From the sequence record NC_052663.1: 64,000 nucleotides of DNA; one strand, 5' to 3'. The stretch is from Escherichia phage VEcB. Below the pieces are notes generated by a model. It saw only the letters and a program-made list of their open reading frames with translations, was not told the origin of the DNA and made no database searches. Every line of letters starts with the position of its first letter. Position 1 is the stretch's first letter. Shown here one piece after another: positions 22,707 through 50,360 of the stretch. The translations under genes were made by a program, and so were the position numbers.

Positions 22707-22713
22707 TGATTTA

Positions 22714-24177: not shown

Positions 24178-24178
24178 A

Positions 24179-24448
24179 TTATTTCTCCTTTCTGACTGTA
24201 ATGTTAGTAACTTCTAAATCCACTTCTACCACTTCTGTATCATATAAAATACAGTTAAGTTGACCTCTTTGTGAACCGTTCAGACACATTGCTTGGTTTG
24301 TATTAACCTTAATAAACACTAAGTTTCTGAACGTATCTAAACCAGCATCTTGATAGGCAACATAATATACAAATGTATCACCTGCGTCAAGTTCTCCAAA
24401 ACATTTAGGTTCATCTGATTCGTCGTCTTTGATATTAAATTTAAGCAC
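24179..24448 (-). CDS. Hypothetical small protein
   Basis: ORF track. Confidence 0.3.
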   Translation of the reverse strand: MLKFNIKDDESDEPKCFGELDAGDTFVYYVAYQDAGLDTFRNLVFIKVNTNQAMCLNGSQRGQLNCILYDTEVVEVDLEVTNITVRKEK

Positions 24449-25004: not shown

Positions 25005-25204
25005 TATACACCAGCCTTAAGATCAATTAAAGCCAAAGTTGTTTCAGAGTGTGTTTGCTCGTCTACAGGTGCAGTCATATGATAATACAAAAAATCTTCA
25101 GCATCATACCAATCTGATTCTTGACCTTGTTTCCAACCATCAATGAAAGCATCTTCCATAATGGTTTGCAATTCTTCACGAGTTAAGTGAATATCTTTAC
25201 TCAT
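25004..25204 (-). CDS. Hypothetical small protein
   Basis: ORF track. Confidence 0.3.
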   Translation of the reverse strand: MSKDIHLTREELQTIMEDAFIDGWKQGQESDWYDAEDFLYYHMTAPVDEQTHSETTLALIDLKAGV

Positions 25205-25437
25205 TACACATTCTCCTCTTTTACCAATTCCATCGTTGAATTGTCAAAACCATCTTTAGAAGAATAGGTATAGACAGAACGTAGTTCTCGCAGGACAGTG
25301 AATACATTAGGATCATCTAACCAAGCATCCTGGAGGAGAACATAACGATCTTCATTGTCATACTGAACAGCAATCATAGAACCAGACAGTTTGTAAATTT
25401 TAATATTCATAATATATTTCTCCTTAAAGTAGACCAC
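25204..25437 (-). CDS. Hypothetical small protein
   Basis: ORF track. Confidence 0.3.
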   Translation of the reverse strand: MVYFKEKYIMNIKIYKLSGSMIAVQYDNEDRYVLLQDAWLDDPNVFTVLRELRSVYTYSSKDGFDNSTMELVKEENV

Positions 25438-26527: not shown

Positions 26528-26595
26528 TCAATTTCCTCCATATTCTTTAGTAAATGGTGATACCTCTGTACCACCATAATAACACAAGTTAAGTA

Positions 26596-27447
26596 TTAAA
26601 CAAACATATCTAAATAATTTGTAGTAATAAATGCTCCATCTGCTTCCAGATTAACATAACCCGTGGTATTAGCAGTTAAGAAATCTAGATCGAAGGACTC
26701 TTTAACACCCCGTACCTCAACACGAGAGATATCGAATACAGGTAGTGTAACAGCCTCTTCGTGCAATACCGTACCTTTGTAGGTTGCCTTAATGATAAAC
26801 TTGATATTACCTGTTCCAGCATCATATAAAACACTTTCAAACCCTTTGAGAGTATATTTATCACCAGAAGTGAAGTGCAAAGTTGCTTTGTTTACAGTAC
26901 GTTTCTTACGAGGAGTTCCTTTCACACGTTTATGATCACTACGTTTTTTGTATTTAGGAATGAATACAAACGATACACTCTCAAGAAAGGTATCAACATC
27001 AAGGATTTTAATATCCTCTGTTGCAGCAAATTTTGAAGTCGTTGCATCAAAATGCTTTTCCCTGCGATCATACATAAAGATATCAAACCGATCTTCTAAA
27101 TCAAACAAATTATGTATTTTAATTTCAGAATGCTTGCGCATTGCAGCAACCTTGAACTCTTCAAAACGTGGGTGTTCTACAAGTTCTTCAAGTTTTACAC
27201 CAAAGACAGTATATGGCTTCGAAGTCTTTTCTGGTGTTGGCATTACAGAAGCATAGTCCCCGATTGCGCTCTTAAAGCAAAATTGTTCTTGACCTGTATT
27301 TTTACCAACGAATTTACAGTATTCATCATCGTGCATACTTTCCTTGGTAGTACCAACAAACTCAAAACCATCTTTATTCTTCTCAAGGATTTCTTGATTA
27401 AAGATCCAACCTTCCAGGCGATATACTTTACCAACTTCTAGTTTCAT
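26596..27447 (-). CDS. Hypothetical protein within the Ter-like cluster
   Basis: ORF track; GAAGGAG RBS. Confidence 0.4.
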   Translation of the reverse strand: MKLEVGKVYRLEGWIFNQEILEKNKDGFEFVGTTKESMHDDEYCKFVGKNTGQEQFCFKSAIGDYASVMPTPEKTSKPYTVFGVKLEELVEHPRFEEFKVAAMRKHSEIKIHNLFDLEDRFDIFMYDRREKHFDATTSKFAATEDIKILDVDTFLESVSFVFIPKYKKRSDHKRVKGTPRKKRTVNKATLHFTSGDKYTLKGFESVLYDAGTGNIKFIIKATYKGTVLHEEAVTLPVFDISRVEVRGVKESFDLDFLTANTTGYVNLEADGAFITTNYLDMFV

Positions 27448-27482
27448 CTGTTTCTCCTTCTTATTTAATCTGTATTAAATTA

Positions 27483-28073
27483 TTAACGACGACGTGAGCT
27501 ACTAAAACTACGTTTCGACGAAGAATAACTTTTCGAAGACTTACTATAAGAACTAATAGGGCTTGAGTAAGACTTACGAGCAGAGTAATCACTATTCACT
27601 TTTGTTGTTGACGGGCGTGAATACGTTTGTACACTTTGCTGCTTAATTGTGTTTTGTTTAGTGGTTGTATATGTATTTCCTTGTTTATCATAAAAACTAT
27701 GCTTTTGTGTTGTATATGCTTTACTGTTAGTTGTAGGAGCAGCGTTGTTATTAATAATTGTTGTGCTGCTACCACCATCTCTATAACCGCCACCGCCACT
27801 ATTACCACTCAACATATGACCAAGAAGCATACCTGTAGCAAACTCACCTACACCAGAAGAACCACTGCCGCCTCCTTGCACAACAACTGTTGAAGGTTGT
27901 GCAGGTGCTGCTTGAACAACTTGAGGTGCAGGCTGATTTACATATTGTTCATCTACCATCTGATTTGGTGTTTGTTGGTAACGTTGATTTTGTACATTTT
28001 CAGAATCATCACAACCTACCAGCAATGCACTACCTAATACAACTGCAACAATAAAAGATTTAATGTTTTTCAT
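27483..28073 (-). CDS. Predicted lipoprotein with low-complexity Q/S/Y/G-rich body and basic Ser-rich tail
   Basis: Signal peptide plus lipobox (LLVGC); GGGSGSSG and SYSKSSKSYSSSKRSFSSSRRR tracts; start taken at internal Met MKNIKSF. Confidence 0.45.
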   Translation of the reverse strand: MKNIKSFIVAVVLGSALLVGCDDSENVQNQRYQQTPNQMVDEQYVNQPAPQVVQAAPAQPSTVVVQGGGSGSSGVGEFATGMLLGHMLSGNSGGGGYRDGGSSTTIINNNAAPTTNSKAYTTQKHSFYDKQGNTYTTTKQNTIKQQSVQTYSRPSTTKVNSDYSARKSYSSPISSYSKSSKSYSSSKRSFSSSRRR

Positions 28074-28269
28074 TTGTAACCCTCTCATTTAAAGTCTCAA
28101 CACAATTTTTAAAATCCCTAGAGAAACAATACATCTGTTCTCCGTTCCTGTTGATAGTAATTGTATGGTTATCAATATATGTTGTCAAGATAAAAATCAA
28201 ACAAAACAACCCTAGAGCAAAACAAATATTTTCAAACAGAATCCAAAGAACACGTAAAACCACCATCAG

Positions 28270-28300
28270 ATCACCTCAACAAAGCCCCCGAAGGGGCTTA
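28270..28300 (-). terminator. Terminator downstream of the TerC gene
   Basis: AGCCCC-CGAA-GGGGCT hairpin followed on the minus strand by TTTGTT. Confidence 0.5.
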
Positions 28301-28317
28301 ATGAATTAAGCAACAGT

Positions 28318-29283
28318 CTAGTCTTCTTTTTCAGGGAAGATTAAACTTGCAATAACACCCAGCCCAAGAGTACCTAACACAATATACATACTGATCGTCG
28401 GATCAATGTGTGCTGGCAGGAAACTCACTTTTGCGTGCAGAGTTTCTGCAAACGGGTGATACATCAGTTTTACACCCACAAATACCAGGACTACGATAAC
28501 TGCTTTCTCCAGATGAACCAAATACTTCAGTGCAACACTAAGAACAAAGAACAGAGCACGTAAACCTAAGATTGCACAGAGCATCGAAGAGAACACCAGC
28601 AGAGGTTCTTGTGTCACCGCAATTACCGCTGGAACAGAGTCTACTGCAAAGATTACGTCAACCATTTCCATTACAAACACACAAACCAGAGCCGGAGTTG
28701 CTACACGAACACCATTTTTGATTGTGAAGAACTTCTCACCATCCATCTGATCAGATACAGGGAACAGCTTACGAACAATGCGAGTAGCCCAGTGTTTAGA
28801 GTAATCAACTTCTGCATCATTATCCCCAGCGAATACCATTTTAGCCGCACAGAAAAGGATGACAGCACCGAAGAAGATATTAACATACCAGCCCAAACTC
28901 AACAAGTAAGTGCCTACTGCTACAAACACACCTCGGAAGACAATCGCACCTGCAATACCCCAAAGTAGAATTTTGTGCTGCAAGTGTGTGCTTTTAATAC
29001 CAAAACTTGCGAAGACTGCCACAAATACTACTAAGTTATCTACAGAAAGAGATTTCTCCAACACATACCCACTCAAGAACAAGCTCGCAAAATCAGCACC
29101 GTGTTGGAAGTATACAAAACCATAGTAGGCTAATGATACCCCAATCCAGAAAATTGACCAGCCAATTGCAGATTTAAATGAAATTTCTTTGTTTTCTCTG
29201 TGTCCAAAGAAGTCAATACAAATCGACAAGACTAAAATACCCACTAAAACAACCACATCAATAATTGGGAAACCCAGTTGCAT
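28318..29283 (-). CDS. TerC-family integral membrane protein
   Basis: Multiple TM helices; signature YVLEKSLSVDNLVVFV and second repeat DVIFAVDSVPAVIAV typical of TerC/Alx. Confidence 0.75.
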   Translation of the reverse strand: MQLGFPIIDVVVLVGILVLSICIDFFGHRENKEISFKSAIGWSIFWIGVSLAYYGFVYFQHGADFASLFLSGYVLEKSLSVDNLVVFVAVFASFGIKSTHLQHKILLWGIAGAIVFRGVFVAVGTYLLSLGWYVNIFFGAVILFCAAKMVFAGDNDAEVDYSKHWATRIVRKLFPVSDQMDGEKFFTIKNGVRVATPALVCVFVMEMVDVIFAVDSVPAVIAVTQEPLLVFSSMLCAILGLRALFFVLSVALKYLVHLEKAVIVVLVFVGVKLMYHPFAETLHAKVSFLPAHIDPTISMYIVLGTLGLGVIASLIFPEKED

Positions 29284-29360
29284 TCTTTTCTCCTCTTTAA
29301 TGCGGAGGACAATCCTCCGCTCTATGTCTTATACTATAAACTGTTTTTAAAGAAAGTCAA

Positions 29361-29609
29361 CTAGTTCAGTTCTGTAATTTTAAGTTTATCTTCTTTGTTA
29401 ATGATAGGGAAAGCTACAGCATCACCTACGTCATCAATAAAGCAAATAGCAAGACCACCTTCCACTTTGCTAATCTGACCATTAAAGGCGTGATACGGGG
29501 CAGGAACTTGATCTCCATCTTCAAGGAGAATAGCCTCGTAAACCTTGCCGATAGTACAATCACGAGTGTTTTTAAATTTTTCAAGCACTTCAACATTTAC
29601 TTTACGCAT
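29361..29609 (-). CDS. Hypothetical small protein
   Basis: ORF track. Confidence 0.3.
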   Translation of the reverse strand: MRKVNVEVLEKFKNTRDCTIGKVYEAILLEDGDQVPAPYHAFNGQISKVEGGLAICFIDDVGDAVAFPIINKEDKLKITELN

Positions 29610-29623
29610 ATAAAGATCCTCTC

Positions 29624-29830
29624 TTATTTGTTAGATTGAAAGATACCACGAAGTACCGCAAGAATGAACGTCACACAGACTACACTCCAAAACGTTACAG
29701 GAACATGATGCCAGTCTAAACCGATAATGTCAATCATATAGTTGTATGCTAAAAGCAGTAGCCAACTAGGGATTAACACAATCAAGAACACAACAATAAA
29801 ACAACCTAATACTGCTAAAACACCTGCCAT
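29624..29830 (-). CDS. Small membrane protein (two hydrophobic helices)
   Basis: ORF track; hydrophobic composition. Confidence 0.35.
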   Translation of the reverse strand: MAGVLAVLGCFIVVFLIVLIPSWLLLLAYNYMIDIIGLDWHHVPVTFWSVVCVTFILAVLRGIFQSNK

Positions 29831-29839
29831 ACTTTCTCC

Positions 29840-30556
29840 TTATTTCAGTTTGTAAACAATTACATTTAAACCTTTGTTCACTAGAGTTTCTTCGATCATA
29901 AGTTTTACAATATTCCAAGAACCTCCAGCCAAACCACAACCAAGCATTGGTAAACCTACAATTTTACCGCCTGAAGATACAACATCGTCTCCCATACTAT
30001 CTAACGCATTGTAGATAGCTTCATAATTCAGGTCACGCTTACCTTCCTCACGACGACTATAACCATATTGTCCATATAAATTATAAATTGTCAAATTGTT
30101 TTCTGCATACTTAGTAAACGTACCTAATTTTTTATAATCACCACGTTTAGTGGCACAATCTGCTTTAAACGCACCAGGCCACTTGCTTTTAATTTTTGGT
30201 GCAATACCACTACCCATAGTGCAAAAACAGTTACAGCAGTGTGCTATAGCGTCTATATCGCCTCTCTCGGCTGCTGCTAAAAGATCACCGTACACCTCAA
30301 TGATACCTGCTGGATAACTTGTTACAATTTCATCTTCCCAGTACATTTTCTCTACACCACCGATCAGTGCAAAGTTTTGTGTAATACGATCATCAATGTA
30401 ATTAAGACCTGAGACATACACAGCGTATTCATCACGTGCTGTGATACCTTGTACACGAATTCTTAAGACACCATCTTTATCTGTTGCTACACGCCCAAAA
30501 TCTTTTTCTGTAATATTGGTGATAGGATCTCCGAAAGTCATTACTTTATTAGACAT
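29840..30556 (-). CDS. Macro-domain-like protein (putative ADP-ribose binding/processing)
   Basis: DAIAHCCNCFCTMGSGIA aligns in pattern with the macro motif (AIVNAAN..LLGGGGVDGAI); second glycine-rich motif GLPMLGCGLAGGSW; ATG overlaps the PRTase stop (AGGGGA RBS). Confidence 0.4.
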   Translation of the reverse strand: MSNKVMTFGDPITNITEKDFGRVATDKDGVLRIRVQGITARDEYAVYVSGLNYIDDRITQNFALIGGVEKMYWEDEIVTSYPAGIIEVYGDLLAAAERGDIDAIAHCCNCFCTMGSGIAPKIKSKWPGAFKADCATKRGDYKKLGTFTKYAENNLTIYNLYGQYGYSRREEGKRDLNYEAIYNALDSMGDDVVSSGGKIVGLPMLGCGLAGGSWNIVKLMIEETLVNKGLNVIVYKLK

Positions 30557-31406
30557 AATAATCCCCTTTAACATTAGGTTTGTTGATAATGTTGCTTTCA
30601 AAAAATTGACGTAGGAAATCAAAGTTCTCTTTGTATTTTTCAATGTTATTGTAACCTTCTGCAAGGCAACCAAAGAACAGTTGTTCTACATAATACAAAG
30701 GAAGTTGTGAAAGTGCAATTTTAAAGTCAACTTCGCTTTGACTCATTAGATACTTAATAGGACGAACCAAACATTTAGCATCAGCTTCTTGCTTAATCAT
30801 TTTAATAAAAGCTGCCAGATTATTGATATAGTTGAAGTTAAGTGCAGCTTCGGTGTTGGCTTCTGTACCTTCATACTTTGCAAAGTACAGGAAAAACGTA
30901 TTGTTTTCAACACCTTCTTTGTCTAAAATTTCAATAAGTTTTTCTTCGTGTGTACCTGTAATATTAACATCATCAATGAAAATCAGATTTTTATCGCCCC
31001 AAAAATCACGATTGATAGAGAAAGTATCACCATCGATCAAAGCCTTACGATCTTCTTTGCTAAGAAATCCATAATCATTGATATAGCTTACTTTACGATG
31101 AACGATATCCCACTCTACTGCTTTACCTCCTTTGATAGAGATTAGGTAGTTGAGGTGATCTACAAAATGTTCAGATAACACTGTAGCTGCATTTTTAACA
31201 TAGTTATACGGAGATGGAATAACAACAGAACTTTCATTTACCAGTCGTTCTTCATATTTAGAAAAGAAACTTTCAGCCAGAATGCGTCCCATTCTTTTTG
31301 CTGCCTGGTTACTACCAAACTTTAGTTTGGAATAATCTGCAATGTTAAATTTTGCTTCCTTCAGGTTAGTAAAAGTATTAGCAAAATGTTGAATTTGATT
31401 ACGCAT
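30549..31406 (-). CDS. Phosphoribosyltransferase-like (PRTase) protein
   Basis: PRPP-binding-type motif NLIFIDDVNITGTHEEKL; 8-nt overlaps with both neighbouring genes. Confidence 0.55.
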   Translation of the reverse strand: MRNQIQHFANTFTNLKEAKFNIADYSKLKFGSNQAAKRMGRILAESFFSKYEERLVNESSVVIPSPYNYVKNAATVLSEHFVDHLNYLISIKGGKAVEWDIVHRKVSYINDYGFLSKEDRKALIDGDTFSINRDFWGDKNLIFIDDVNITGTHEEKLIEILDKEGVENNTFFLYFAKYEGTEANTEAALNFNYINNLAAFIKMIKQEADAKCLVRPIKYLMSQSEVDFKIALSQLPLYYVEQLFFGCLAEGYNNIEKYKENFDFLRQFFESNIINKPNVKGDYYV

Positions 31407-32055
31407 TAATAAGTTCCTCTTTTTTAAGTTTAGCCAACAAGTCTTCTGGATTAATAATATGACAGAACTTCATCCCTATGTCAACAGCTTTTCCATCATA
31501 AATCAAACTATCTCCAACGTGTAAAATCTCCTCTGGTGCGAGATCAAACGTCACCATTTCATCAAAAGAGAGTTTAAAAAACCTAGGATCTGGTTTACAC
31601 AAGCAAAACTCGTCAGAAAAATGCATAAAGTCGAATGGTAATTTTGTTAAGCCAGAATATACAGCTAAGAAACTACCTGGTACAAAATTAGTATTGCTCT
31701 TAATACTCAAAGAGTAGGTTGAACTTAACTCTTCCAACTTCTTGCAAAGTTCAGGATTCAATGTTGGAGGATGTTTTATAAACATTGCTAAACAGTCTCT
31801 TTTTAACCCATCCACTTTATCAAGATCAATGTTCAAACGAGTAGAAAGTGTTACCCAAGCATCCTTAGACGTTCCACAAATGCCTTTTTCTGCTTTTAAA
31901 TCCAAGAGAGTTTTTACCTCTTTATATACGGTAGCTGCTTCTACCTCAGAACAAGAGGCATACTCGGCAATAACCTTGTTGCGCTCTTCTGCATACAAAG
32001 GGTTAGCAGTAATAAGAGTATTCCATACATCAAAAGAAATATGCTTAACAGTCAT
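31399..32055 (-). CDS. HAD-superfamily hydrolase (phosphatase/dehalogenase-like)
   Basis: Motif I ISFDVWNTL, KPDPR, motif IV HVGDSLIYDG; start set at Met with GGAGG RBS. Confidence 0.6.
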   Translation of the reverse strand: MTVKHISFDVWNTLITANPLYAEERNKVIAEYASCSEVEAATVYKEVKTLLDLKAEKGICGTSKDAWVTLSTRLNIDLDKVDGLKRDCLAMFIKHPPTLNPELCKKLEELSSTYSLSIKSNTNFVPGSFLAVYSGLTKLPFDFMHFSDEFCLCKPDPRFFKLSFDEMVTFDLAPEEILHVGDSLIYDGKAVDIGMKFCHIINPEDLLAKLKKEELINA

Positions 32056-32225
32056 TTTTAATCCTCCGTCCAAAAGAATATCATCTGCTTAATTTTATTG
32101 ATCTCTTGATGTAGTAACTTTCCAGCATGTGATTGATCTTTAATATTGACAGCAAGAATTTCAAGCTCCGTTAGTTTTTCCTGGATAGCTTTATATTCAT
32201 CATCTGTAAGCATTTTCTTCCCCCT

Positions 32226-32429
32226 TTAGAATGGTAATCTTTGTATGTCACTTATCCCCACACCAAGAAGTCTAGCAATATCCTTATCTAAAAGCAACTC
32301 TTTTTGTTCTAAAATGTTAATCAGATCTCCTAATACTTCTTTAATGTCACGATCATTTTTAGCAACGTGACCACCTGCCGTATCAACTTTATCTTTAAAA
32401 ACAAAGTAATGATCCATAATACCCTCCAT
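32226..32429 (-). CDS. Hypothetical small protein
   Basis: ORF track. Confidence 0.3.
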   Translation of the reverse strand: MEGIMDHYFVFKDKVDTAGGHVAKNDRDIKEVLGDLINILEQKELLLDKDIARLLGVGISDIQRLPF

Positions 32430-32435
32430 ATAAAT

Positions 32436-32458
32436 AAAGGAGGCTTTCGCCTCCTTTT
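32436..32458. terminator. Hairpin terminator between the ATPase paralog A gene and 32226..32429
   Basis: GGAGGC-TTTC-GCCTCC hairpin with T-rich flanks. Confidence 0.45.
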
Positions 32459-32463
32459 ATCAC

Positions 32464-33624
32464 TTAGTAAGAACGACCACCAAACACATACTCTGTGTAG
32501 TTTTTACGTTCTTTGTTTTTAATAACAACTTCAATGTTGTTACCTTTATCATCGGTGAACACAAAGTGATAACCGTCACCACCCATTGTACGGATGTGTT
32601 TTTCATCATACGTCAGCAAGATACGGTCTACACCCCAGTAGTAGTCACCTTCTTCATCTTTGTCTTCTACTGTAACGACCCCTTCCATTTCAGGAAGATG
32701 TTCTTCTCCTAGCTTATGGTCTACAGCTACAACATAACGATTACCGCTAAACAAACCCTGTGCTGTCATACCGTCAATATCGGTATCTGCCGAAACATCT
32801 CCTGTACGATCTACACCGTTGACTTTCAGAAGTTTAACTTCTTTTGCAGCATAGCGGTGTTCAGTAATACTGATACCCATTAATGCAAGTGCATCAGAGA
32901 ATTTGTCATTAGGGTAACGGTTAAGTTCTTCTACTAATGACTGAACAATATCAAAGTTCAAGTCCACGGACAGATTATAAAGCGTTTCAAAATCTGGTAA
33001 AAAGGCTTTGTTCTCCAGATTTTTAGCCAGATAATCATCCATAGTAGCTTTAGGTAGTTTCTTATAGCTAAAACTGTAGAAAATACGGCTAGGACGATTA
33101 CGCAAAAATTCTGATACATAACCATCATTTTTAGTCAATACAAACAGCTTGTCATAACCACCAACACCATCCAGCAGGGTAAGCAAACCATCTTGTGCAT
33201 CTTTTTCAGCATACAGTTTATCAAATTCATCGATCATAATCATCACAGGTTGTGTGATTTTAGACATAAAGTTGATAAAGCCTTCACCATTAAAAGCACT
33301 ACCGATAGAAATAGTAGGAATACCCATTTCACGAAGAGCAGAAGACAGCATTTTAGCTTGCAAAGTTTTACCGCTACCTTTCGTACCCTCAAGGAGAACA
33401 CCTGTGTTTTTACCTTTGCGGCTAAGGAACGTCTTGATAATACGTTCTGATTTATCATCAGTATCACCGTATGTTACTGAAGGGACTTCCATATCGTTTT
33501 TAGGATACAGGAAGAACTCGCCACTTTGAGTAACACCTACACCAAAAGTTCCTGCTGGAATTTCTTCAATATCTGTACCAGACTTCTGACGCAGGAAGAT
33601 TTGATTGCCGAATACTGTAAACAT
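32464..33624 (-). CDS. P-loop NTPase (AAA-like), paralog A
   Basis: Walker A GTKGSGKT, Walker B MIMIDEFDK; colinear paralog of 49159..50286 on the + strand. Confidence 0.55.
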   Translation of the reverse strand: MFTVFGNQIFLRQKSGTDIEEIPAGTFGVGVTQSGEFFLYPKNDMEVPSVTYGDTDDKSERIIKTFLSRKGKNTGVLLEGTKGSGKTLQAKMLSSALREMGIPTISIGSAFNGEGFINFMSKITQPVMIMIDEFDKLYAEKDAQDGLLTLLDGVGGYDKLFVLTKNDGYVSEFLRNRPSRIFYSFSYKKLPKATMDDYLAKNLENKAFLPDFETLYNLSVDLNFDIVQSLVEELNRYPNDKFSDALALMGISITEHRYAAKEVKLLKVNGVDRTGDVSADTDIDGMTAQGLFSGNRYVVAVDHKLGEEHLPEMEGVVTVEDKDEEGDYYWGVDRILLTYDEKHIRTMGGDGYHFVFTDDKGNNIEVVIKNKERKNYTEYVFGGRSY

Positions 33625-33644
33625 AGTTTTCTCCTCTATTTAAT

Positions 33645-34115
33645 TTAGTCAGATTCCCAAATGTTGTCTTTCTTAACCCACATTCGTTGATTATCTGAAC
33701 CTCTATAACGTTTCGTTGTTGGTTGAGTCATATCATACTTACCATCTATTACTATGTCAACCAGTTTTTTAATTTTCTCTGGAATTTCTTCAAAAAGATA
33801 TCCTGTATATAAGACAATATCTTTTTTGTTTCCAAAACAATCTCTTACCTTCTCAAGAACATACTCTACAGTGTCAATGTTCTCTTTGTCAAGAGGTTCA
33901 CCACCTAAAACTGTTAATCCTTTAATGAAAGGTCGAGATAAATCTTCCAAGATAAGATCTAATGTTTCAGTAGTGAACTCTTGTCCGTAGTTATACGACC
34001 AGGCTTTCTGGTTGAAGCAGCCACGGCAACCGTGGCTACAACCGCTCACCCACAAAGAGCATCTTACACCGTCACCGTTGAGCATGTCAACAGGTTCATA
34101 TCCGGCGTAATTCAA
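33645..34115 (-). CDS. nrdG: Anaerobic ribonucleotide reductase activating protein (radical SAM)
   Basis: Cys cluster CSHGCRGC near N-terminus; 156 aa; directly downstream of nrdD; TTG start with RBS. Confidence 0.65.
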   Translation of the reverse strand: MNYAGYEPVDMLNGDGVRCSLWVSGCSHGCRGCFNQKAWSYNYGQEFTTETLDLILEDLSRPFIKGLTVLGGEPLDKENIDTVEYVLEKVRDCFGNKKDIVLYTGYLFEEIPEKIKKLVDIVIDGKYDMTQPTTKRYRGSDNQRMWVKKDNIWESD

Positions 34116-35050
34116 AAATGTTTCTCCCTTTCTAATACTTCTTGCATTTTACCTTTATTATAAGGGCGAGAGTTAGGGGCAGAAAGGTATCCTGACACTC
34201 TTCTGATCACAGATATGGATTCTTCTTCATGATTACCGCAACTTGGACACTCGAAGCCTTTAGCCGTTGCTTTAAATTCACCATGAAAACCACATTTGAA
34301 ACACTGATCTACAGGTTGGTTCACGCCAAAATAAGGAATTTTGTTGTAGGCATAATCTACAAGAGTTTCCAGTGCTTGCAAGTTATTTTTAAGGTTTGGT
34401 GTTTCTACATAACCTATGTTCCCACCATTACTAATTTGTGCAAAACCTTCCTCATAATCCCACTTTTGGAACGGGGTAGTGTGCATCCACACAGGTTGAT
34501 GGAAAGAGTTTGTCAAGTAGTCACGATCAATAGAACCAGGATAGCGATCATTTAATGCTTTGGCAAATTTATAGCACAAGGATTCTGCTGGTGTTCCATA
34601 CAAACTAAAAGCTAAACCAGAACGTTCTTTAAATGTGCCACAGATATCCTTCATATATTGAAGGATGTTTTTACCCATTGCTTTTGGATTGGTGTTACCT
34701 GGGTATAAAATCTCCATAGCTTCTGCTAAACCTACATAACCGATACTAATAGAGGCATAACCACCTTCGAATAGTTTACCAATCTCTTCATTAGCTTCTA
34801 GTCGAGCTAAAGCCCCTTCCATAAACAATGTAGGGTTTTGAGATGCTTTGGTATGTCTAATACGGTTAACACGTAGCATATGTGCCTTATACGCCATCTC
34901 CATATGTTGTTCCAACAGTTCAGTAAATAAGATGCCCTTTTCACGGGACTCTGCTGCAATGATAGGTAAGTTTAAAGAAACTACGCCTAAGTTGAAACGA
35001 CCATCATATTTTTCACCTTGCTCTGTTGCATAGTATGACAAGAAACTTCT
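34112..35050 (-). CDS. nrdD: Anaerobic ribonucleoside-triphosphate reductase, 3' exon (C-terminal half); upstream boundary is the intron 3' splice site, not mapped
   Basis: C-terminal Zn ribbon CFKCG...CPSCG and glycyl-radical motif RRVSGYL; the first residues of the track ORF are intron sequence. Confidence 0.7.
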   Translation of the reverse strand, partial: RSFLSYYATEQGEKYDGRFNLGVVSLNLPIIAAESREKGILFTELLEQHMEMAYKAHMLRVNRIRHTKASQNPTLFMEGALARLEANEEIGKLFEGGYASISIGYVGLAEAMEILYPGNTNPKAMGKNILQYMKDICGTFKERSGLAFSLYGTPAESLCYKFAKALNDRYPGSIDRDYLTNSFHQPVWMHTTPFQKWDYEEGFAQISNGGNIGYVETPNLKNNLQALETLVDYAYNKIPYFGVNQPVDQCFKCGFHGEFKATAKGFECPSCGNHEEESISVIRRVSGYLSAPNSRPYNKGKMQEVLEREKHF

Positions 35051-35083
35051 ACACATTATGTTCAAAGTGGCTCGCAAGGCCAC

Positions 35084-35814
35084 TCCCGCACCATTACGTG
35101 CTGCTGCATGTCACCATGCAGATCAGACTATATCTTCATGCTTAAAGCATGTCTACCATTTGGGGTGTCATAGGCTTACACCCTACGCTGCTACATTCAT
35201 CACAGCTAGTCGTTAGGCATTTCGTAACAGAACTCATAATCATAATTATTTGGTGCTCCGCGCTTTAAGATTGCAGATATTCTTTTTCTGTCCAACCCTA
35301 AAGCGTCAGCACAACATCTCAGACTTTTAAAGTAAAAAACTTCACCAGTAGCCTTATGAGTAGCTTTTACACTGTGACACCTTGTGTAGAAAGCATAACA
35401 GTTATTATCGTAACCCTCTTGCGTGTTGTCTGGACAAGATCCCCACTCAAGATTGTATACACTGTTGTCTTTCCTATTGTCACCTTTATGCTTCACATAA
35501 GGTAAATTGTCTGGATTGGGTAAAAACGCTTCAGCTACAAGTCTGTGCACCCGAAAGCAAACAGTTTTCTTGTTTTTACGTATTCTGACAAGTTGGTATC
35601 CTGTGTTTATTTCTTCCCACGAGCGAAGGATTCTTTCATCCTTATACCTGGTACAATAAACATTTCCAAGCTCGTCAATTTCATACCCTTCAAAATCACG
35701 AATTTGTTTTCTCATATCAGTACCCCCCTTCTTCTGTGTTGGGAGTTCTGTTACGTTTAGCACGGGATTGTCTCGTTGAGAGTTCCCCCGTTTAGGCAGA
35801 TTTTACATGAGCAG
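35084..35814 (-). mobile_element. Group I self-splicing intron interrupting nrdD, carrying an HNH endonuclease ORF
   Basis: nrdD is split into two same-strand ORFs; intervening RNA (minus strand) begins ...CUGCCUAAACGGGGGAACUCUCAACGAGACAAUCCCGUGCUAAACG, closely resembling the conserved core of T4-type group I introns; boundaries approximate. Confidence 0.6.
35206..35715 (-). CDS. Intron-encoded HNH homing endonuclease
   Basis: HNH-type motif HRLVAEAFLPNP...HKGDNRKDNSVYNLEWGS; start at internal ATG with AAGGGGGG RBS; lies within the nrdD intron. Confidence 0.6.
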   Translation of the reverse strand: MRKQIRDFEGYEIDELGNVYCTRYKDERILRSWEEINTGYQLVRIRKNKKTVCFRVHRLVAEAFLPNPDNLPYVKHKGDNRKDNSVYNLEWGSCPDNTQEGYDNNCYAFYTRCHSVKATHKATGEVFYFKSLRCCADALGLDRKRISAILKRGAPNNYDYEFCYEMPND

Positions 35815-36681
35815 TTATAGTTTACCCATGCTTGTGACGCGACCATCTGAAGATCCTGTAACTTCTTTGTTTAAAGGTACAGAGATAAAATCAGGATAAA
35901 TGCGTTCAGCACAACACTCCATTGCCAGTTGCTTCAAATCATAATTTGGATCGCCAGCTTTCATGTTAACACCATCTTCCAAGAAGAAGATAACTTTAGG
36001 AAACACAGGAGTTACCCTATCTTTTCCTAATCCTTGTTTGTGCACCATTAGGTAGTTTTTAGTGATCATTCTACCAAAAGCAGAGGTATCCAAACCTAAA
36101 CTAATTGTTATAAAAGGTGACTGACCATTTACACTCATTAGGGTGTTCACCTGGTAGATTAAAGTTTGCATTGCATCATAGACCTGTTTATCTACCATAC
36201 GCATAGCAATATCATAATCGCCAACATCGGCATATATTTTATTAAAACTTGCTTTAACGTATTGACTAAGCCCAGTATCAACATGTGCACAAGTTTGTCC
36301 ACCATATTGGCTAGAAGCTACTGCTTGAATAATTTGAGTTAGGACAGTAGTTGCTACACCAATAGATTTTGGTTTTTCAATATGTGCATTACCAATACGG
36401 AAACCGTTCTCAAGCATATCTTGGTAATTTACCAGGCAACAATTAGTTAAAGGTGAGAGTAAATAATCTAAATCGTGGATGTGACCATACCCACTTTTAT
36501 GCCATTCTGCTAAATCTTCAGGCAAAATATGGGTCATTGCCATGTGCTTGCTTAGGATACCTGCTAGTAAATCTCGGTGAGTATTAACAATCATTGCAGG
36601 TTTGTTTGCATTTTCACGAGTAAATTCTTCGGATGTTTGTTCGAGGAATCCGATTACATCCTCATATAGTTTTTGGGTCAT
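35815..36681 (-). CDS. nrdD: Anaerobic ribonucleoside-triphosphate reductase, 5' exon (N-terminal half); true exon end is the 5' splice site a little upstream of the in-frame stop
   Basis: Start at ATG with GGAGG RBS (MTQKLYEDV...); exon 1 plus exon 2 total about 600 aa. Confidence 0.65.
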   Translation of the reverse strand: MTQKLYEDVIGFLEQTSEEFTRENANKPAMIVNTHRDLLAGILSKHMAMTHILPEDLAEWHKSGYGHIHDLDYLLSPLTNCCLVNYQDMLENGFRIGNAHIEKPKSIGVATTVLTQIIQAVASSQYGGQTCAHVDTGLSQYVKASFNKIYADVGDYDIAMRMVDKQVYDAMQTLIYQVNTLMSVNGQSPFITISLGLDTSAFGRMITKNYLMVHKQGLGKDRVTPVFPKVIFFLEDGVNMKAGDPNYDLKQLAMECCAERIYPDFISVPLNKEVTGSSDGRVTSMGKL

Positions 36682-36699
36682 TAATCCTCCGTGGAAAAT

Positions 36700-36724
36700 A
36701 AAAGCCAGCATTAAGCTGGCTTTA
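36700..36724 (-). terminator. Terminator upstream of nrdD
   Basis: GCCAGC-ATTAA-GCTGGC hairpin followed on the minus strand by TTTTATTTT. Confidence 0.5.
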
Positions 36725-36770
36725 GGGTGGATCTTTATTTTAAATCTTTTTCGTAAGATTGTCCTTGATC

Positions 36771-37721
36771 TTAGTCAAGGTTTTTGGTAATACGTGTACA
36801 ACCGTCAGAAGTCAAACCGTCAACTTGAGTTTCCCAAGTGCCATGAATATTTCGGAACAATGTTGTTACACCTTTTGGTTCATTAATAATGATTGCCATA
36901 ACAAGTTTAGGATCGATAACAGACATAATCTTTTCCTCAATACCCTCTGTAATAACATTATTACGCACAATATTAATTACATCTTCTTGTACAGTAAGAG
37001 TGCTTACGTTCTTAAGAGTATATACCTGCTGCGTAGTGTAAATGATACGAACATAGCTTACAGAACGAGTAGGCACAGGTTTACGCGGTCGGCGAAAACG
37101 TGGTTTTGGTGAAGATTCAGTCTTACTTTCATTTTTTGAATAATACTCCTCAAACAGTTTAGTAAATGTTTTTACATCAACTACAAACCGATCTTTCCTA
37201 TATGGAGAATACTTATGTGCACCATTAATTCCACTGTTTTCATCAAAGAAAGTAATATTTTCTTCAGTTGAATATGTTAGATAATGGTCTGCATCTTTCC
37301 AATGTGGTTGTGGACAATGCGGATTACAAACGGAAAGCAGATAACTAATATCTTCTTCCGTTGCACTAGTATCCAGGAAACATGTATTATGCACAGACAG
37401 TTCTACTTTTTCAACCATATCCTTTTCTTTATCCTCTTTGGCAAGATACTCAGTACGAATAATATCCAGAAAATCTTTAGGTGTTACTTCCATAAATGTA
37501 TATTCAGGGTGAAGTTCCATATATTCAAATCCACAACCATCTAATTGCTGTAGGAAGTTAGGATAGAAGAACAAGTCATTAACACTATGAATCAGATCAT
37601 TGATTTCTGCTTCAGATGTGTAACCAAAACTCTTGTGAATTGCTTCATTAAGAATATGCAGGATACCCATCTCTTCTGCTGCTTTTTTAACTTCCAGTTT
37701 ATTAGCGTAAAATGCAATCAT
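36771..37721 (-). CDS. Hypothetical protein
   Basis: ORF track; AAGGAG RBS. Confidence 0.4.
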   Translation of the reverse strand: MIAFYANKLEVKKAAEEMGILHILNEAIHKSFGYTSEAEINDLIHSVNDLFFYPNFLQQLDGCGFEYMELHPEYTFMEVTPKDFLDIIRTEYLAKEDKEKDMVEKVELSVHNTCFLDTSATEEDISYLLSVCNPHCPQPHWKDADHYLTYSTEENITFFDENSGINGAHKYSPYRKDRFVVDVKTFTKLFEEYYSKNESKTESSPKPRFRRPRKPVPTRSVSYVRIIYTTQQVYTLKNVSTLTVQEDVINIVRNNVITEGIEEKIMSVIDPKLVMAIIINEPKGVTTLFRNIHGTWETQVDGLTSDGCTRITKNLD

Positions 37722-39016: not shown

Positions 39017-41791
39017 TTAGTTTACCAGTTTATTTATATCTGGTAAAAGATTTATTTCACCTAAAAAATCACCTTCACCTTCCTCTAACCAACTCTCATA
39101 TGCTTGTGCATGATTATAGTTACCATCAAAAGAATCTGCAACAAATTTTTCTACAGCTTTTCGAGATGTGCCAGCGCCAAATACACCAAGTTTAATACCA
39201 TTGATCGGTAAAGTGGTGCTTGTTGGTACTTTCTCTGTTGCAACACGGTTGATATCTATAATCTCCTGTACGGTTGTGTTCCATTGTAAGCATTTAACAC
39301 AACGGGTATGCGCTACATACAGTAGGTTTCGCTCTGCCTCTTCCAGTCCTACCCATTCACCAGTCTTTTTATCATAGTTGGAAGGAAAATCATTAGCAAC
39401 AATAACCTGATCCCACTCCAAACCTTTAGACTTGTGTGCTGTAGTAAGTGTGACTTTTGCTGTAGGAGAATTTCTGTGCGTTCTAAGTGTATGTGCTATG
39501 GTGTTCGCCTTACCAGAAACTACGATGTTTAACAAGCGTTTAGCATCTGGATCAGCCTCTGCACACTCAACAAATTCATCCCAGTCTGCGTAAGGTAATA
39601 CAGTTTCATGTTTTACTTTCTCAATATCTCCTCTCCGAAGAGCATTAACACTATCTACCATAGAGATAAAATCCCTGGTATCTACGTTAATAATAATTTC
39701 TTCCCCATCTGCAATACGATCCATTGCCTCCATAAGCAAGGTTAAATTCTTGCGAAAGATGATAGTGTAAGGTTTTGTATAGTCTACAACATCTGATTTG
39801 TAGCTACCTACTACAGTATCAAAGCCTTTACCAACCAAAGGATGACGCAAAGGTTCTTTATCGCTTAAAATCATATTGGCAATGTTTGCCACTTTGGGGC
39901 CAAAACGGAAGCAAGCAGTTAATGGAAGCTCTGCCCCATACTTAGCTGTTTCAATCATCATATTAGAGCTACCTCTAAATTGATAAATGCAGTTGTGGCT
40001 AAGAATTTCATTGCCAAAGAAGTTAGCAGTATCCTCTACTTCAATATCATAATAGATACCCTCACTATCTACAATGTCCACAATCTCTTCTGCCGTTACA
40101 GTATCACCATCTTTTACCAACACAGACATGCCTTTAAACAAACCCGCTGCCGGAATTAAGTTATATTTGGCACTGTTCACAGAGGACATGCATTCTTTTA
40201 AAGATGCAAACGGAACTATTTCAAGGATCTTTTGTGCAAAACTCAATGCTTCACGATAAGAATTGAAATATTTACGTACACGGTAACGACCTTCCAATTT
40301 AGCAGCACTTACGCTTACACCTGCTTTAATCAGTGAAGAATAGATCGGCATTTCACTTTCTGTCCACTCAAAACTAACTTGTGTTCCTTTACAACCTTGT
40401 GCTCGCAAAGTCACTGTTAGCATTTTTCTTTCATCTACTGCACAATTGATGCTGTGCCAGTGTGGATAAGCAAAATGATAATCTTTATCCTCTAAAAGTT
40501 TAAAACCATTTTGTCCGAATTGTTCAAAGATGTTATTGATCCTTTCTTGATTAATGCCGCGTGAACTTGCTTCAAATACACAAGTAGGAATGCCATATTG
40601 TAAACTGTATGCCATTTCTTTTTCCATAGCAGCTTCACGGTTTTCAACAATATCCAACACCCATAATTTCTGTGCTTTTTCAGAACGTGTACGTTGCCCC
40701 AGTTTAGAAAAACCTTCTTTATCATCGAATTTGTTAGTGATCCCTACTCGGAAACCTAAATCTTTCCTCCACATTAGGTATACCACCATCTGATCATCTT
40801 TCAGAACATAGGATGAAGCCCAAATACGATGGTTATGTGTCATATCTAAAGTTTTACCTGTGGCAGTAATAATATTCCTACCTTTTGTACGTGTAGATAA
40901 AGTCTTATTTGTTACTTTTCTAAATGTAATTTTACCATTAGAATAAGACTCTACCTTATCACCGATTTGTAGGTCTTTCATTGTAACCTGACCATTCTCG
41001 GTATTAAGTACCGTGTTTTCCGACACACATTGGAATTCATCGCCCACTACCACAATTTGTTTTGCAGATTTAGCATTTCGCAGAATAGACAAGAATGCAG
41101 GGTTAACATCCTGGAATTCATCACCAAAAATAATGTCATAACCAAGGTCAGCACCTGATAATTCAAACAATTTTACATAGGTGTCATGCGTCATCAAAGT
41201 ATCTGTGTTAGGATCGATGCGCTCTCGCCACAATTGTTTTGCATACTTAACCACTTCTGTAATTAGTTTGTGTTCGTTAATACCTTTTCTTTTAATATCT
41301 GCAAGATGTACACTAGGAAAATGTTTACGGCTGATAAAAGGATCATCCGAAAATTCAAACTTACCTACGGTTTGCTTGATCATTAAACCGATCATAGCAC
41401 GAGTTAAAAGTGTTTTACCTCGTTTATCAATAAGATTATTAATCTTAAATTTCTTTGCTATCTCGCTACCTGTACCTGCAACGTTAACATACTGTCCTTC
41501 TGGTCGTGACAGTTTTGCGCGTAAACGATGATCCAGGAATTGATAGCAAATAGAATGCAATGTACGGCATTCTACATTTAGTGGCATCTTACGTCGTGCT
41601 TCTTCTGCCATGCTTTTATTGAAAGCTAAGTAAAGAATGCGATCTTCTGTACTGTTAGCCAGCAAATAAAGTGTTGACGTTTTGCCTGATCCAGATTTAG
41701 CTTGGATAGTTAAAAAGCGATGGTCTGGAAAAGCCTCCTTAATAGCTGTTTGCTCTTCTGTTGGAGTGAAGCTCAACTCTTTCTTAGCCAT
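39017..41791 (-). CDS. SF1 (UvrD/PcrA-like) DNA helicase interrupted by an intein
   Basis: Motif I AKSGSGKT, motif II GDEFQD, motif III split as VVVGDEFQ / [intein] / CIYQFRGSS; start at MAKKELS with AGAGG RBS. Confidence 0.7.
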   Translation of the reverse strand: MAKKELSFTPTEEQTAIKEAFPDHRFLTIQAKSGSGKTSTLYLLANSTEDRILYLAFNKSMAEEARRKMPLNVECRTLHSICYQFLDHRLRAKLSRPEGQYVNVAGTGSEIAKKFKINNLIDKRGKTLLTRAMIGLMIKQTVGKFEFSDDPFISRKHFPSVHLADIKRKGINEHKLITEVVKYAKQLWRERIDPNTDTLMTHDTYVKLFELSGADLGYDIIFGDEFQDVNPAFLSILRNAKSAKQIVVVGDEFQCVSENTVLNTENGQVTMKDLQIGDKVESYSNGKITFRKVTNKTLSTRTKGRNIITATGKTLDMTHNHRIWASSYVLKDDQMVVYLMWRKDLGFRVGITNKFDDKEGFSKLGQRTRSEKAQKLWVLDIVENREAAMEKEMAYSLQYGIPTCVFEASSRGINQERINNIFEQFGQNGFKLLEDKDYHFAYPHWHSINCAVDERKMLTVTLRAQGCKGTQVSFEWTESEMPIYSSLIKAGVSVSAAKLEGRYRVRKYFNSYREALSFAQKILEIVPFASLKECMSSVNSAKYNLIPAAGLFKGMSVLVKDGDTVTAEEIVDIVDSEGIYYDIEVEDTANFFGNEILSHNCIYQFRGSSNMMIETAKYGAELPLTACFRFGPKVANIANMILSDKEPLRHPLVGKGFDTVVGSYKSDVVDYTKPYTIIFRKNLTLLMEAMDRIADGEEIIINVDTRDFISMVDSVNALRRGDIEKVKHETVLPYADWDEFVECAEADPDAKRLLNIVVSGKANTIAHTLRTHRNSPTAKVTLTTAHKSKGLEWDQVIVANDFPSNYDKKTGEWVGLEEAERNLLYVAHTRCVKCLQWNTTVQEIIDINRVATEKVPTSTTLPINGIKLGVFGAGTSRKAVEKFVADSFDGNYNHAQAYESWLEEGEGDFLGEINLLPDINKLVN
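39992..41029 (-). mobile_element. Intein (about 346 aa) in helicase motif III
   Basis: Begins with Cys (CVSENTVLNTENGQ), block B TLDMTHNHRIW, block F/G DIEVEDTANFFGNEILSHN followed by extein Cys; extein junction reconstitutes GDEFQ-CIYQFRG. Confidence 0.6.
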
Positions 41792-46858: not shown

Positions 46859-47038
46859 TTATTTTTGTAGATCATTTCTTCTTTCCTTTTTGATTACAGC
46901 CCCGTCACTTCCTTGCCAAACTTCCGCTCTGAATTCCATCTCAAACCACTCACCACCGCAAAAACGGCTGTGTTCAACACGTCTATCTTCCTTCATTGCT
47001 TCTTTAGCTTCGATAGAAGTTAGTTCGATGTTTTGCAT
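46859..47038 (-). CDS. Hypothetical small protein, first gene of the minus-strand block (start at internal ATG with AAGGAG RBS)
   Basis: The longer track ORF would run into the divergent promoter region. Confidence 0.3.
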   Translation of the reverse strand: MQNIELTSIEAKEAMKEDRRVEHSRFCGGEWFEMEFRAEVWQGSDGAVIKKERRNDLQK

Positions 47039-47156
47039 TTGCTTTTCTCCTTTCATTTGGTATGCGCTAATCTTAACAAAATAAAAATGTATGTCAATAC
47101 TTGATTTGAAATTAGTTTCTGGTACTCTGTGTGTATCGTAACAAAAGAGGTTAGAT

Positions 47157-49158: not shown

Positions 49159-50286
49159 ATGAAATACACGATTTATGGTGATATTGTAAGTGTAAATAAA
49201 GATATGGGCGTGGAATCTAACTATCTTCCACCTGGATTCTATACTGTTAGTCGTGATCCCCTTGGCAATTATTTTTTAAGCCGTGGTAATCTGACAGGTG
49301 TACCGGATGTTCTGTATGGTGAAACAGAAAAACGAGCAAATCACGTTATTCGTACATTCCATCGCCGGAGTGCACAAGGTAAAAATACAGGCTTGCTTCT
49401 GACAGGAACTAAGGGCAGTGGTAAAACTATGTTAGCCAAACTCATTAGTCGTGACCTTGTAGAAGAAGGTATTCCAACTATTATGGTTACTCAAGCCTAC
49501 AGCGATGCTAATTTCATTGAACTTATTAGCAAGATCACCGACAAAGCAGTGATTATTTTTGACGAGTTTGATAAAGTATATGAGAAGAAACAAGATCAAG
49601 AAGCACTTCTCACTTTGTTAGATGGTACTGGCAGTGGTAATAAACTGTTTATTCTGACTAAAAACAGTGGTTTTATCTCTGAATTCTTTTTAAATCGTCC
49701 TAGTCGTGTGTTTTATAATTTTAATTATGATAAAATCTCACTAGAAACTATGATTGACTATTTAGATAAAAACCTGGATAACAAAGCACACTTTGATAAT
49801 TTCCAAAGACTTTGGGATGTAAGTTTAGAGTTGTCCTTTGATGTGATCCAAGGTATAGTAGAAGAACTTAATTTCTACCCTGATTTGTCCTTTAAAGAAT
49901 GCATCTCTATGATGGGCGTTTCTTTGGGTGGTGGTAATAAATGGGATATCAGCAGCGTTGTTATTAATGGGAAACTTCAGAAAGTTAGCTGGGTATCTAG
50001 TTGGCATAACTTTACACCTGCAATCTTTTTAGGTGGTTCGTGCACACTAGACGTGTATTTGTCATCTCCAAGTGATGCAGACTCTAAAGAAGCCCTTGCT
50101 AATAGCTCTTACGTGGTTTTTGATGATGAAGGCGATGCTCGAATTCCATTGAATGCGACAAAAATGAAAGCAGATCTTATCACAGGCGGTAAAATCGTTG
50201 TGTTTAGTGATGATCCAGAAGATTCTTTCCGTATTGTTCTGGAACCAACTATCACCAATGGTGCAACTTTGGCAAGTGTGTTTTAA
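49159..50286 (+). CDS. P-loop NTPase (AAA-like), paralog B
   Basis: Walker A GTKGSGKT, Walker B IIFDEFDK; colinear with 32464..33624; hairpin terminator downstream. Confidence 0.55.
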   Translation: MKYTIYGDIVSVNKDMGVESNYLPPGFYTVSRDPLGNYFLSRGNLTGVPDVLYGETEKRANHVIRTFHRRSAQGKNTGLLLTGTKGSGKTMLAKLISRDLVEEGIPTIMVTQAYSDANFIELISKITDKAVIIFDEFDKVYEKKQDQEALLTLLDGTGSGNKLFILTKNSGFISEFFLNRPSRVFYNFNYDKISLETMIDYLDKNLDNKAHFDNFQRLWDVSLELSFDVIQGIVEELNFYPDLSFKECISMMGVSLGGGNKWDISSVVINGKLQKVSWVSSWHNFTPAIFLGGSCTLDVYLSSPSDADSKEALANSSYVVFDDEGDARIPLNATKMKADLITGGKIVVFSDDPEDSFRIVLEPTITNGATLASVF

Positions 50287-50299: not shown

Positions 50300-50326
50300 T
50301 AAAAACCCGCTTCGGCGGGTTTTCTT
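50300..50326 (+). terminator. Rho-independent terminator after ATPase paralog B
   Basis: AAAACCCGC-TTCG-GCGGGTTTTCTT. Confidence 0.6.
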
Positions 50327-50360
50327 GCATTAATGCCAGATTTAATAAGAGGAGTAGTAG

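Follow-up and report, generated by a model that had tools for sequence, protein, structure and literature searches.

Large phages carry ATPases that are grouped in the family PHROG 2376, and the members annotated as 'ATPase' include phi92 gp190 and gp221, Cronobacter phage GAP32 gp367, Salmonella phage SE131 gp139 and Brochothrix phage A9 gp41. The best profile matches of these proteins are Cdc48/p97/VAT, NVL/Rix7, Afg2/Drg1 and Pex1, with E values of 4e-12 to 1e-7 over the alpha/beta core, while the strongest structural matches are represented by Bcs1, Cdc48/p97-like proteins and YjoB. The identity of the phage proteins to Bcs1 and to Bacillus subtilis YjoB amounts to 15-18% and involves the AAA module alone. 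FtsH shares a generic AAA module with the phage proteins, and its name has entered their annotation: phi92 gp190 and gp221 are already labelled 'ATPase; putative ATPase or Zn metalloprotease', which becomes 'FtsH-like protease' in some records. Two diverged AAA+ copies per genome are kept in the case of Pex1/Pex6 and Rvb1/Rvb2, which are obligate hetero-hexamers. Likewise, phages of the Justusliebigvirus lineage carry two members of PHROG 2376, whereas the other phages of the family are mostly single-copy.

The window analysed here, a stretch of 64,000 nucleotides from Escherichia phage VEcB (NC_052663.1), is 98-99% identical to phi92-like coliphages (Justusliebigvirus, Stephanstirmvirinae) and contains both copies. 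Paralog A (32464..33624, - strand; 386 aa plus stop) corresponds to phi92 gp190 and paralog B (49159..50286, + strand; 375 aa plus stop) to phi92 gp221. The two open reading frames lie at the coordinates and on the opposite strands given in the original prediction, and the separation into different blocks that it described is also confirmed, as A belongs to a long - strand block and B to a short + strand cassette, with a spacing of 15.5 kb. The two are not new as genes, since they have been annotated in many genomes already, and A in particular is 98-100% identical to annotated 'ATPase' genes of Justusliebigvirus genomes. The pair is real and lineage-specific and consists of two diverged intact copies, but it is an ordinary paralog pair within a widespread phage AAA+ family.

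The two proteins had been described as homologous over their full length. In a BLASTP comparison, residues 2-253 of A align with residues 3-256 of B at 47% identity and 70% positives (E = 1e-81), so that the similarity extends over ~254 residues and is not limited to the generic Walker motifs. The claim of full-length homology thus holds in pairwise alignment for the first ~254 residues, whereas the last ~125-130 residues are unalignable pairwise and require profiles. When profiles are compared with hhalign, the C-terminal domains of the A clade and the B clade match with 60% probability (E 8e-5), and the C-terminal domain of a bridging group of 368-aa proteins (P0041-46) matches those of the A clade and the B clade with 92-96% probability each. 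In parallel, the order of the predicted secondary-structure elements is equal in the AlphaFold models of A and B (pLDDT 86.5 and 87.4, respectively). On the basis of profiles and models, the C-terminal domains of A and B are diverged homologs. As to the motifs on which the pairing had been based, GTKGSGKT (Walker A) and LLTLLDG.G are found exactly in both proteins. Walker B reads MIMIDE in A and VIIFDE in B, so that the quoted string IDEFDK is complete in one copy only and DEFDK is the part in common (MIMIDEFDK in A, IIFDEFDK in B); similarly, FLNRPSR(I/V)FY is exact in one copy only and reduces to a common NRPSR (FLRNRPSRIFY in A, FFLNRPSRVFY in B).

HMM classification, one of the checks originally proposed, places both proteins in PHROG 2376 over their full length. 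In particular, residues 1-376 of A cover positions 2-359 of the 363 positions of the phrog_2376 profile (E 3.6e-104), and residues 1-367 of B cover positions 1-357 (E 6.6e-108). Both also score above the Pfam PF00004 gathering cutoff of 21.2 bits, A with 29.4 bits and B with 38.9 bits. Ten residues (G80, G83, G85, K86, D132, E133, N166, R177, P178 and R180, in A numbering) are invariant in all 52 family members compared, which include both clades. The arginines of the second region of homology (SRH) are placed at +11 and +14 from sensor 1 with the 'N...RPGR' spacing, as in the 'RPGRFD' of FtsH and p97, where arginines occupy the same two positions, and in the Lactobacillus homologs the SRH reads RPGRF exactly. 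The 50 best Foldseek matches of the B model all belong to the classical clade (Bcs1, YjoB, proteasomal Rpt subunits, FtsH, Drg1, Rix7 and Mpa), and the 60 matches of the family profile among PDB sequences are, without exception, Cdc48/p97/VAT/NVL/Rix7/Afg2/Pex1 proteins (best E 3.8e-12, over the alpha/beta core only). By sequence, A and B are classical-clade AAA+ ATPases with a complete set of active-site residues. In BFVD, models with an equal full-length, four-domain predicted fold are found for uncharacterised proteins of Erwinia jumbo phages, Salmonella SE131 and Proteus P59, as well as of Agrobacterium Atu_ph07, Lactobacillus Lpa804 and crAss-like phages. PHROG 2376 is best explained as a phage-restricted subfamily of classical-clade AAA+ ATPases in large phages.

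Along the chain of A, all of it on the - strand, four domains can be delineated. The N-terminal domain (aa 1-52; 33469..33624) is predicted to contain five beta strands (residues 2-5, 8-11, 17-19, 26-31 and 37-41) and is 27% identical to that of B. It is followed by the AAA+ alpha/beta core (aa 53-190; 33055..33468), 55% identical to that of B, with the Walker A motif GTKGSGKT at G80-T87 (33364-33387; 49405-49428 on the + strand for the same motif in B), the Walker B residues D132-E133, the sensor-1 residue N166 and F111 at the position of pore loop 1, all within the core, and the SRH arginines R177/R180 (33085-33129). A helical lid subdomain (aa 191-252; 32869..33054), modelled as helices 192-202, 206-218, 224-236 and 242-248 and 47% identical to that of B, precedes the C-terminal beta-rich domain (aa 253-386; 32467..32868), which is the fastest-evolving part and a sequence orphan, with an identity to B of 22% in the global alignment from which the domain values are taken. 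A search of 1.84 billion representatives with this last domain returned just six matches, four of which are A-clade proteins or fragments. The other two, to PAS-repeat and FN3-repeat proteins, were rejected as repeat-protein artefacts, being repeat-summed chance similarities at odds with the predicted strand order. In A orthologs that are 67-76% identical (around 75% over the whole protein) the C-terminal domain is 41-53% identical, a value that drops to ~30% in the most remote orthologs, and across B orthologs it is 34-70% identical compared to 56-76% for the whole protein. In both clades, therefore, the C-terminal domain evolves faster than the rest of the protein. The accessory domains of both proteins are net acidic.

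Compared with the named systems, A and B share with the Cdc48/p97-type proteins the Walker A and B motifs, the sensor-1 asparagine and the SRH arginines at +11/+14, but they have a single AAA module in place of the tandem D1-D2 arrangement, different accessory domains and a non-canonical pore loop. Indeed, a tyrosine or phenylalanine occupies the pore-loop-1 position in 49 of the 52 family members, and the motif reads F-N-G in A and Y-S-D in B instead of the canonical aromatic-hydrophobic-glycine, within a shorter loop. The likeness to Bcs1 is limited to the AAA module, which aligns over ~200 to 250 residues, and neither the transmembrane anchor nor the Bcs1-specific N-domain is present in A or B, thus leaving them outside the Bcs1 family; conversely, the N- and C-terminal beta domains of the phage proteins have no counterpart in Bcs1 or YjoB. 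With regard to FtsH, no match to Peptidase_M41, no HExxH motif and no transmembrane segment was found in A or B, the maximum 19-residue hydropathy being ~1.0 in each. The 'Zn metalloprotease/FtsH-like' label is therefore unsupported and was discarded. This corrects a misleading annotation, 'Zn metalloprotease/FtsH-like protease', which has spread through therapeutic-phage genomes.

The same comparisons bear on the possibility that A and B are accessory ATPases of replication, of the helicase loader, clamp-loader-like or initiator-like type, with A drawn into the block of replication and nucleotide-metabolism genes in which it lies. Matches of this kind reach 10-100 bits, compared to 350 bits for phrog_2376, and stay far below the NCBIfam cutoffs. 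In the DnaA/DnaC/IstB/Hda clade of initiators and loaders, the best match is to Hda, whose 29.8 bits compare with a cutoff of 194.8, and IstB reaches 19.9 bits where 200 are required. For the clamp loaders, the PHROG match is 24-36 bits, the SRH is of the classical RPSR/RPGR type with classical spacing and not SRC (A and B read RPSR), and the predicted C-terminal domain is beta-rich where a helical collar would be expected. In addition, the accessory domains carry a net acidic charge, the top of the profile and Foldseek lists holds classical-clade remodelers only, and the adjacency to nrdG is absent in Klebsiella phage KP13-26, the ancestral context being represented by arrays of small hypothetical genes. 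Taken together, a role in replication is very unlikely.

The explanation that we prefer builds on the domain organization. Each protein, with its N-terminal beta domain, AAA+ core, helical lid and C-terminal beta-rich domain, would form a ring powered by ATP, which takes hold of a protein or protein complex and remodels or unfolds it, in the way of Bcs1, Cdc48/p97 and YjoB. The fast-evolving N- and C-terminal domains would select the substrate or an adaptor, and both copies would have been kept since they act on different targets, possibly at different times. We infer such a ring, with specificity set by the terminal domains and two copies kept for different targets, from sequences and models, and consider it the likelier course of events, with a confidence that is a little above even. 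The point at which A and B differ is consistent with it: the differences cluster in the accessory domains at both ends of the chain and the C-terminal domain of A is a sequence orphan, which makes a functional divergence plausible. Of the two ways to read the divergence of the accessory domains, a different substrate specificity seems to fit better than redundancy.

The origin of the two copies can be approached from their distribution, which was surveyed by tblastn against 50,697 phage records. Two copies are present in Justusliebigvirus and in its Klebsiella relatives KP13-26, phi1_175008 and FKP3, while one copy is found in Phapecoctavirus, phiWec-type phages, Citrobacter Tr1, jumbo phages, Moazamivirus, Aeromonas phages, several Herelleviridae and others; A was found in at least 58 phage records. 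The single copy of Phapecoctavirus shares 64.5% identity with B along its full length, compared to 43% with A over 75% of the length, and the same CapR/T5orf172 'endonuclease' gene lies downstream of it and of B, thus pointing to B as the ancestral, syntenic copy. The reverse side of the comparison is seen at the A locus. In Phapecoctavirus tuntematon, nrdD and nrdG are followed by a 13-bp gap and gp189, without A; in Justusliebigvirus the order is nrdG, A, a hairpin and gp189; and in KP13-26 it is A, hairpin and gp189, with nrdDG absent from this place. The comparison indicates that A and its hairpin form a discrete indel of ~1.2 kb exactly at the nrdG/gp189 junction. B is therefore the ancestral copy and A an extra inserted one, a point that the original prediction did not contain and that clarifies the status of A as an accessory, lineage-specific insertion.

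A bootstrapped neighbour-joining tree of 256 shared columns gave support values of 100 for the A clade, 98 for the B clade (with the P0048 group) and 100 for a jumbo phage clade. The grouping of A, the bridging group and B received 73 and that of A with the jumbo phages 0. This topology suggests that A arose within the ~150-kb Stephanstirmvirinae-like lineage, before the split between Justusliebigvirus and its Klebsiella relatives. That A and B share one origin inside the lineage is supported by a bootstrap of just 73, which counts against the preferred explanation. A may have arisen by duplication in situ, followed by loss in Phapecoctavirus, or it may have been transferred from a related phage. 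Outside this lineage, Lactobacillus phage LpeD carries a tandem pair, orf98/orf99, whose products are 38% identical to each other and have kept the catalytic motifs in both copies. This independent duplication shows that two-copy states recur.

Both copies are under strong purifying selection, and neither is decaying. Between the window and phi92, A shows 14 synonymous and 2 nonsynonymous differences (dN/dS ~0.04) and B 22 and 0 (dN/dS ~0); for A compared with KP13-26, dN/dS is ~0.06, a value obtained at saturated dS. Both copies have intact orthologs, at 56-76% identity. These results bear on the possibility that one copy is redundant and decaying, a transient duplication without a function of its own, to which Phapecoctavirus, managing with one copy, and a genome record without A lend some weight. 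This record, deposited as the 'complete genome' of phage 92CQ and 129.8 kb long, passes directly from window position 20136 to 36772. The 16.6 kb between these positions, with A, nrdD and nrdG, are lacking, whereas B is present and 100% identical. Judging from its location, the homolog of the phi92 endolysin is lost with this block as well, so that a misassembly is possible. The low dN/dS values largely refute decay, A orthologs as distant as 56% identity are still intact and have lost none of the catalytic residues, and A persists in the at least 58 records mentioned above, making decay extremely unlikely. The 92CQ record nonetheless suggests that A may be dispensable, which counts against the explanation by two target-specific rings. 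All in all, the original proposal of retention with sub-functionalisation stands in its first part, as two intact copies with invariant catalytic residues and low dN/dS have been kept, while the functional divergence contained in its second part is plausible in view of the differences in the terminal domains.

The existence of described systems with two AAA+ subunits raises a further alternative, namely that A and B are subunits of a single hetero-oligomeric ring, as in Pex1/Pex6, Rvb1/Rvb2 or Yta10/Yta12. In agreement with it, all observed phage records with A also carry B, the parts that would form the ring interface are the best kept (55% identity in the AAA core and 47% in the lid), and the LpeD tandem pair, being independent, shows a recurrence of two-copy states. 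Unlike the genes of Pex1/Pex6 and Rvb1/Rvb2, however, A and B are unlinked, and relatives typically carry a single copy. Most phages of the family, including the sister genus Phapecoctavirus, have one copy, which argues that the ancestral protein works alone. Moreover, the active sites are complete in both copies, with no pattern of a degenerate partner, the two genes lie 15.5 kb apart on opposite strands in separate terminated units, and the 92CQ record keeps B apparently without A. A shared ring is thus quite unlikely, and two rings of different specificity remain the preferred explanation.

The two transcription units to which A and B belong diverge from an intergenic region (46876..47156) that, according to the map of open reading frames, marks the start of both the - strand block, with A ~13.5 kb downstream, and the + strand cassette, with B ~2 kb downstream. 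A site scan of this region identified a promoter-like site on the - strand (47097..47070; TTGACA-16-TG-TAAGAT) and one on the + strand (47073..47101). On the - strand, the stop codon of A is followed, ahead of the ribosome-binding site of gp189, by a terminator-like hairpin (32436..32457) with a 9-bp stem and a GAAA loop, a folding energy of -18.8 kcal/mol and z = -5.3. This hairpin is kept in Klebsiella phage KP13-26 with a compensatory change from A:U to G:C, and it is absent from Phapecoctavirus, which has no A. B is followed by a predicted intrinsic terminator (50302..50327, + strand; AAAACCCGC-UUCG-GCGGGUUUU, then CUU) whose fold is canonical, a GC stem capped by a UUCG loop ahead of a U-tract, and the same hairpin is found 3' of the B ortholog in Phapecoctavirus tuntematon. 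Sites with at least 11 of 12 matches to the sigma-70 consensus number 16 in the window, compared to 2.9 +/- 1.5 expected, and match the orientation of the genes. One of them (33732..33760, - strand; TTGACA-17-TATGAT; 11/12 matches) lies inside nrdG, ~108 nt upstream of the ATG of A, and could work as an internal promoter.

These features are relevant for the idea that the copies differ mainly in the time of expression, early versus middle as the original prediction gave by way of example, and are equivalent in biochemical function. Separate units on opposite strands with a terminator after each would suit such a difference, as would the near-consensus site 108 nt upstream of A, given that none with 11 or more of the 12 matches occurs in the B cassette. 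That site, though, is intragenic and mostly explained by conserved NrdG codons. Indeed, its -35 hexamer falls on codons for conserved NrdG residues and is unchanged in the nrdG of tuntematon, where no A follows and the -10 reads TATGAA, and the two intragenic sigma-70-like matches on its strand are about the number expected by chance. A promoter of A at 33760..33732 was thus not counted as demonstrated and is retained only as a possible one. In addition, the N- and C-terminal domains have diverged down to 22-27% identity under purifying selection, which is more than timing alone requires. A difference limited to timing is unlikely on these grounds, and the sequence evidence on the transcription of A and B remains ambiguous. 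A literature search returned no transcriptome of the phi92-like phage group or of remote homologs, and nothing usable on expression or function in the phi92-like group and for the Herelleviridae homologs.

With regard to the neighbourhood of the genes, the B cassette contains small genes, candidate host-interaction genes and a gene with a NADAR domain, and the single copies of GAP32, SE131, Brochothrix A9, Lactococcus AM1 and the metagenomic phage carrying P0041 are similarly placed among arrays of small hypothetical genes. Such arrays resemble the B locus and would be typical of early or host-takeover regions. It can be speculated that the family is a phage unfoldase or disassembly machine directed against host proteins, such as defence or proteostasis complexes, with the C-terminal domain as the targeting module and A and B as two specificities. 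The small, early-type gene surroundings, the NADAR neighbour, the orphan and fast-evolving C-terminal domain and the possible dispensability of A would all fit, and the proposal is nevertheless a long shot. If it were true, the independent duplications in the Justusliebigvirus/Klebsiella-relative lineage and in the Lactobacillus Herelleviridae would represent an arms-race diversification of the target range. The matter concerns a wide set of phages, as PHROG 2376 is conserved in many large lytic phages, among them phi92-like phages, Phapecoctavirus, Rak2/GAP32-like jumbo phages, Moazamivirus, several Herelleviridae and some crAss-like phages. The two-copy state may provide a natural handle on it, as the cores are near-identical in design and the N- and C-terminal domains differ, making the targets of the family approachable.

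A few further candidates were considered around the two genes. Membership in a defence system was dismissed, as PADLOC gave trivial matches only. The 'hypothetical tRNA' that the phi92 RefSeq record places inside gene 190 was likewise discarded, since ARAGORN predicts no tRNA anywhere in the window. Two neighbours were evaluated as specific partners and rejected. The small HTH-like gene gp189, downstream of A, has homologs in Phapecoctavirus, which is without A, while gp220, a protein with a transmembrane helix encoded upstream of B, does not occur in Phapecoctavirus and is common among unrelated phages without the ATPase.

The ATPase family (PHROG 2376) to which gene A (32464-33624, − strand) and its paralog B (49159-50286, + strand) belong is also duplicated in a Lactobacillus phage: orf98 and orf99 of LpeD, a member of the Herelleviridae, form a tandem pair of this family (2275-4562 of L010, a sequence stretch of that phage) whose members are 38% identical to one another and both retain the Walker A and B motifs and RPGRF. 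This duplication is separate in origin from that of the A/B pair. Two places each for the A/B-type family are likewise found in SAC12B and Lpa804.

At the start of the + strand cassette that carries B, a segment of about 0.87 kb (46937-47807), which contains the homologs of phi92 genes 214 and 216 together with the divergent promoter region, lies the opposite way round in the window with respect to phi92, Eryne and 92CQ, and agrees in orientation with its counterpart in Phapecoctavirus tuntematon. Because of this inversion, the cassette begins two genes earlier in the window; a search for inverted repeats flanking the segment returned none of substantial size. Directly 3' of B, on the + strand, is an 'endonuclease' gene (50361-51350) that encodes two CapR-homology domains and a T5orf172 (GIY-YIG-like) domain, and that is also kept 3' of the B ortholog in Phapecoctavirus; its product, 329 aa long in the window, falls short of the 396 aa encoded in phi92. 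The following + strand gene (51351-51902) encodes a NADAR-domain protein of 183 aa (PF08719, E 5.8e-36), the phi92 counterpart of which, gp223, is annotated as 'conserved hypothetical'; the 'DNA methyltransferase' label that the protein bears in phage Eryne appears to be a mis-annotation. The NADAR protein is a candidate for a role in reversing ADP-ribosylation or in anti-defence.

Further along, 54900-62500 holds 9 near-consensus sigma-70 promoters (11-12/12 matches), all of them on the + strand and most with A-rich elements upstream and GC-rich hairpins after them, and in the window as a whole 16 near-consensus sites are present against 2.9 expected. The + strand cluster looks like a classical early-promoter array.

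On the side of A, the deposited 92CQ genome (L012) lacks a block of 16.6 kb corresponding to window 20137-36771, which comprises a glycosyltransferase, an endolysin homolog, Ter-like genes, a hydrolase, gp189, A, nrdG and nrdD. The junction is exact and yields a fused ORF annotated as 'ribonucleotide reductase'; the block has either truly been deleted or been lost through misassembly. Within this block, phi92 nrdD, which encodes the anaerobic RNR large subunit (genes 192/193), carries two annotations, one as a pair of ORFs and the other as a 'spliced variant', which implies an intervening sequence of about 250 bp; from the phi92 annotation, the matching position is window ~35077-35324. The phi92 RefSeq record also annotates a 'hypothetical tRNA' antisense to gene 190, equivalent to ~32896-32983 (+) within A, and this candidate was ruled out as ARAGORN predicted zero tRNAs across the window.

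92CQ also lacks an internal stretch of about 1.07 kb (39965-41034) of the UvrD-like helicase gene. When 32 bases of 92CQ that remain unaligned are taken into account, the net shortfall relative to the window is about 1038 bp, or 346 codons, and the gene measures 1737 bp in 92CQ versus 2775 bp in phi92; the phi92 annotation describes it as having '2 discontinuous domains'. An inserted domain, an intein and a mobile element are all possible identities for the additional stretch.
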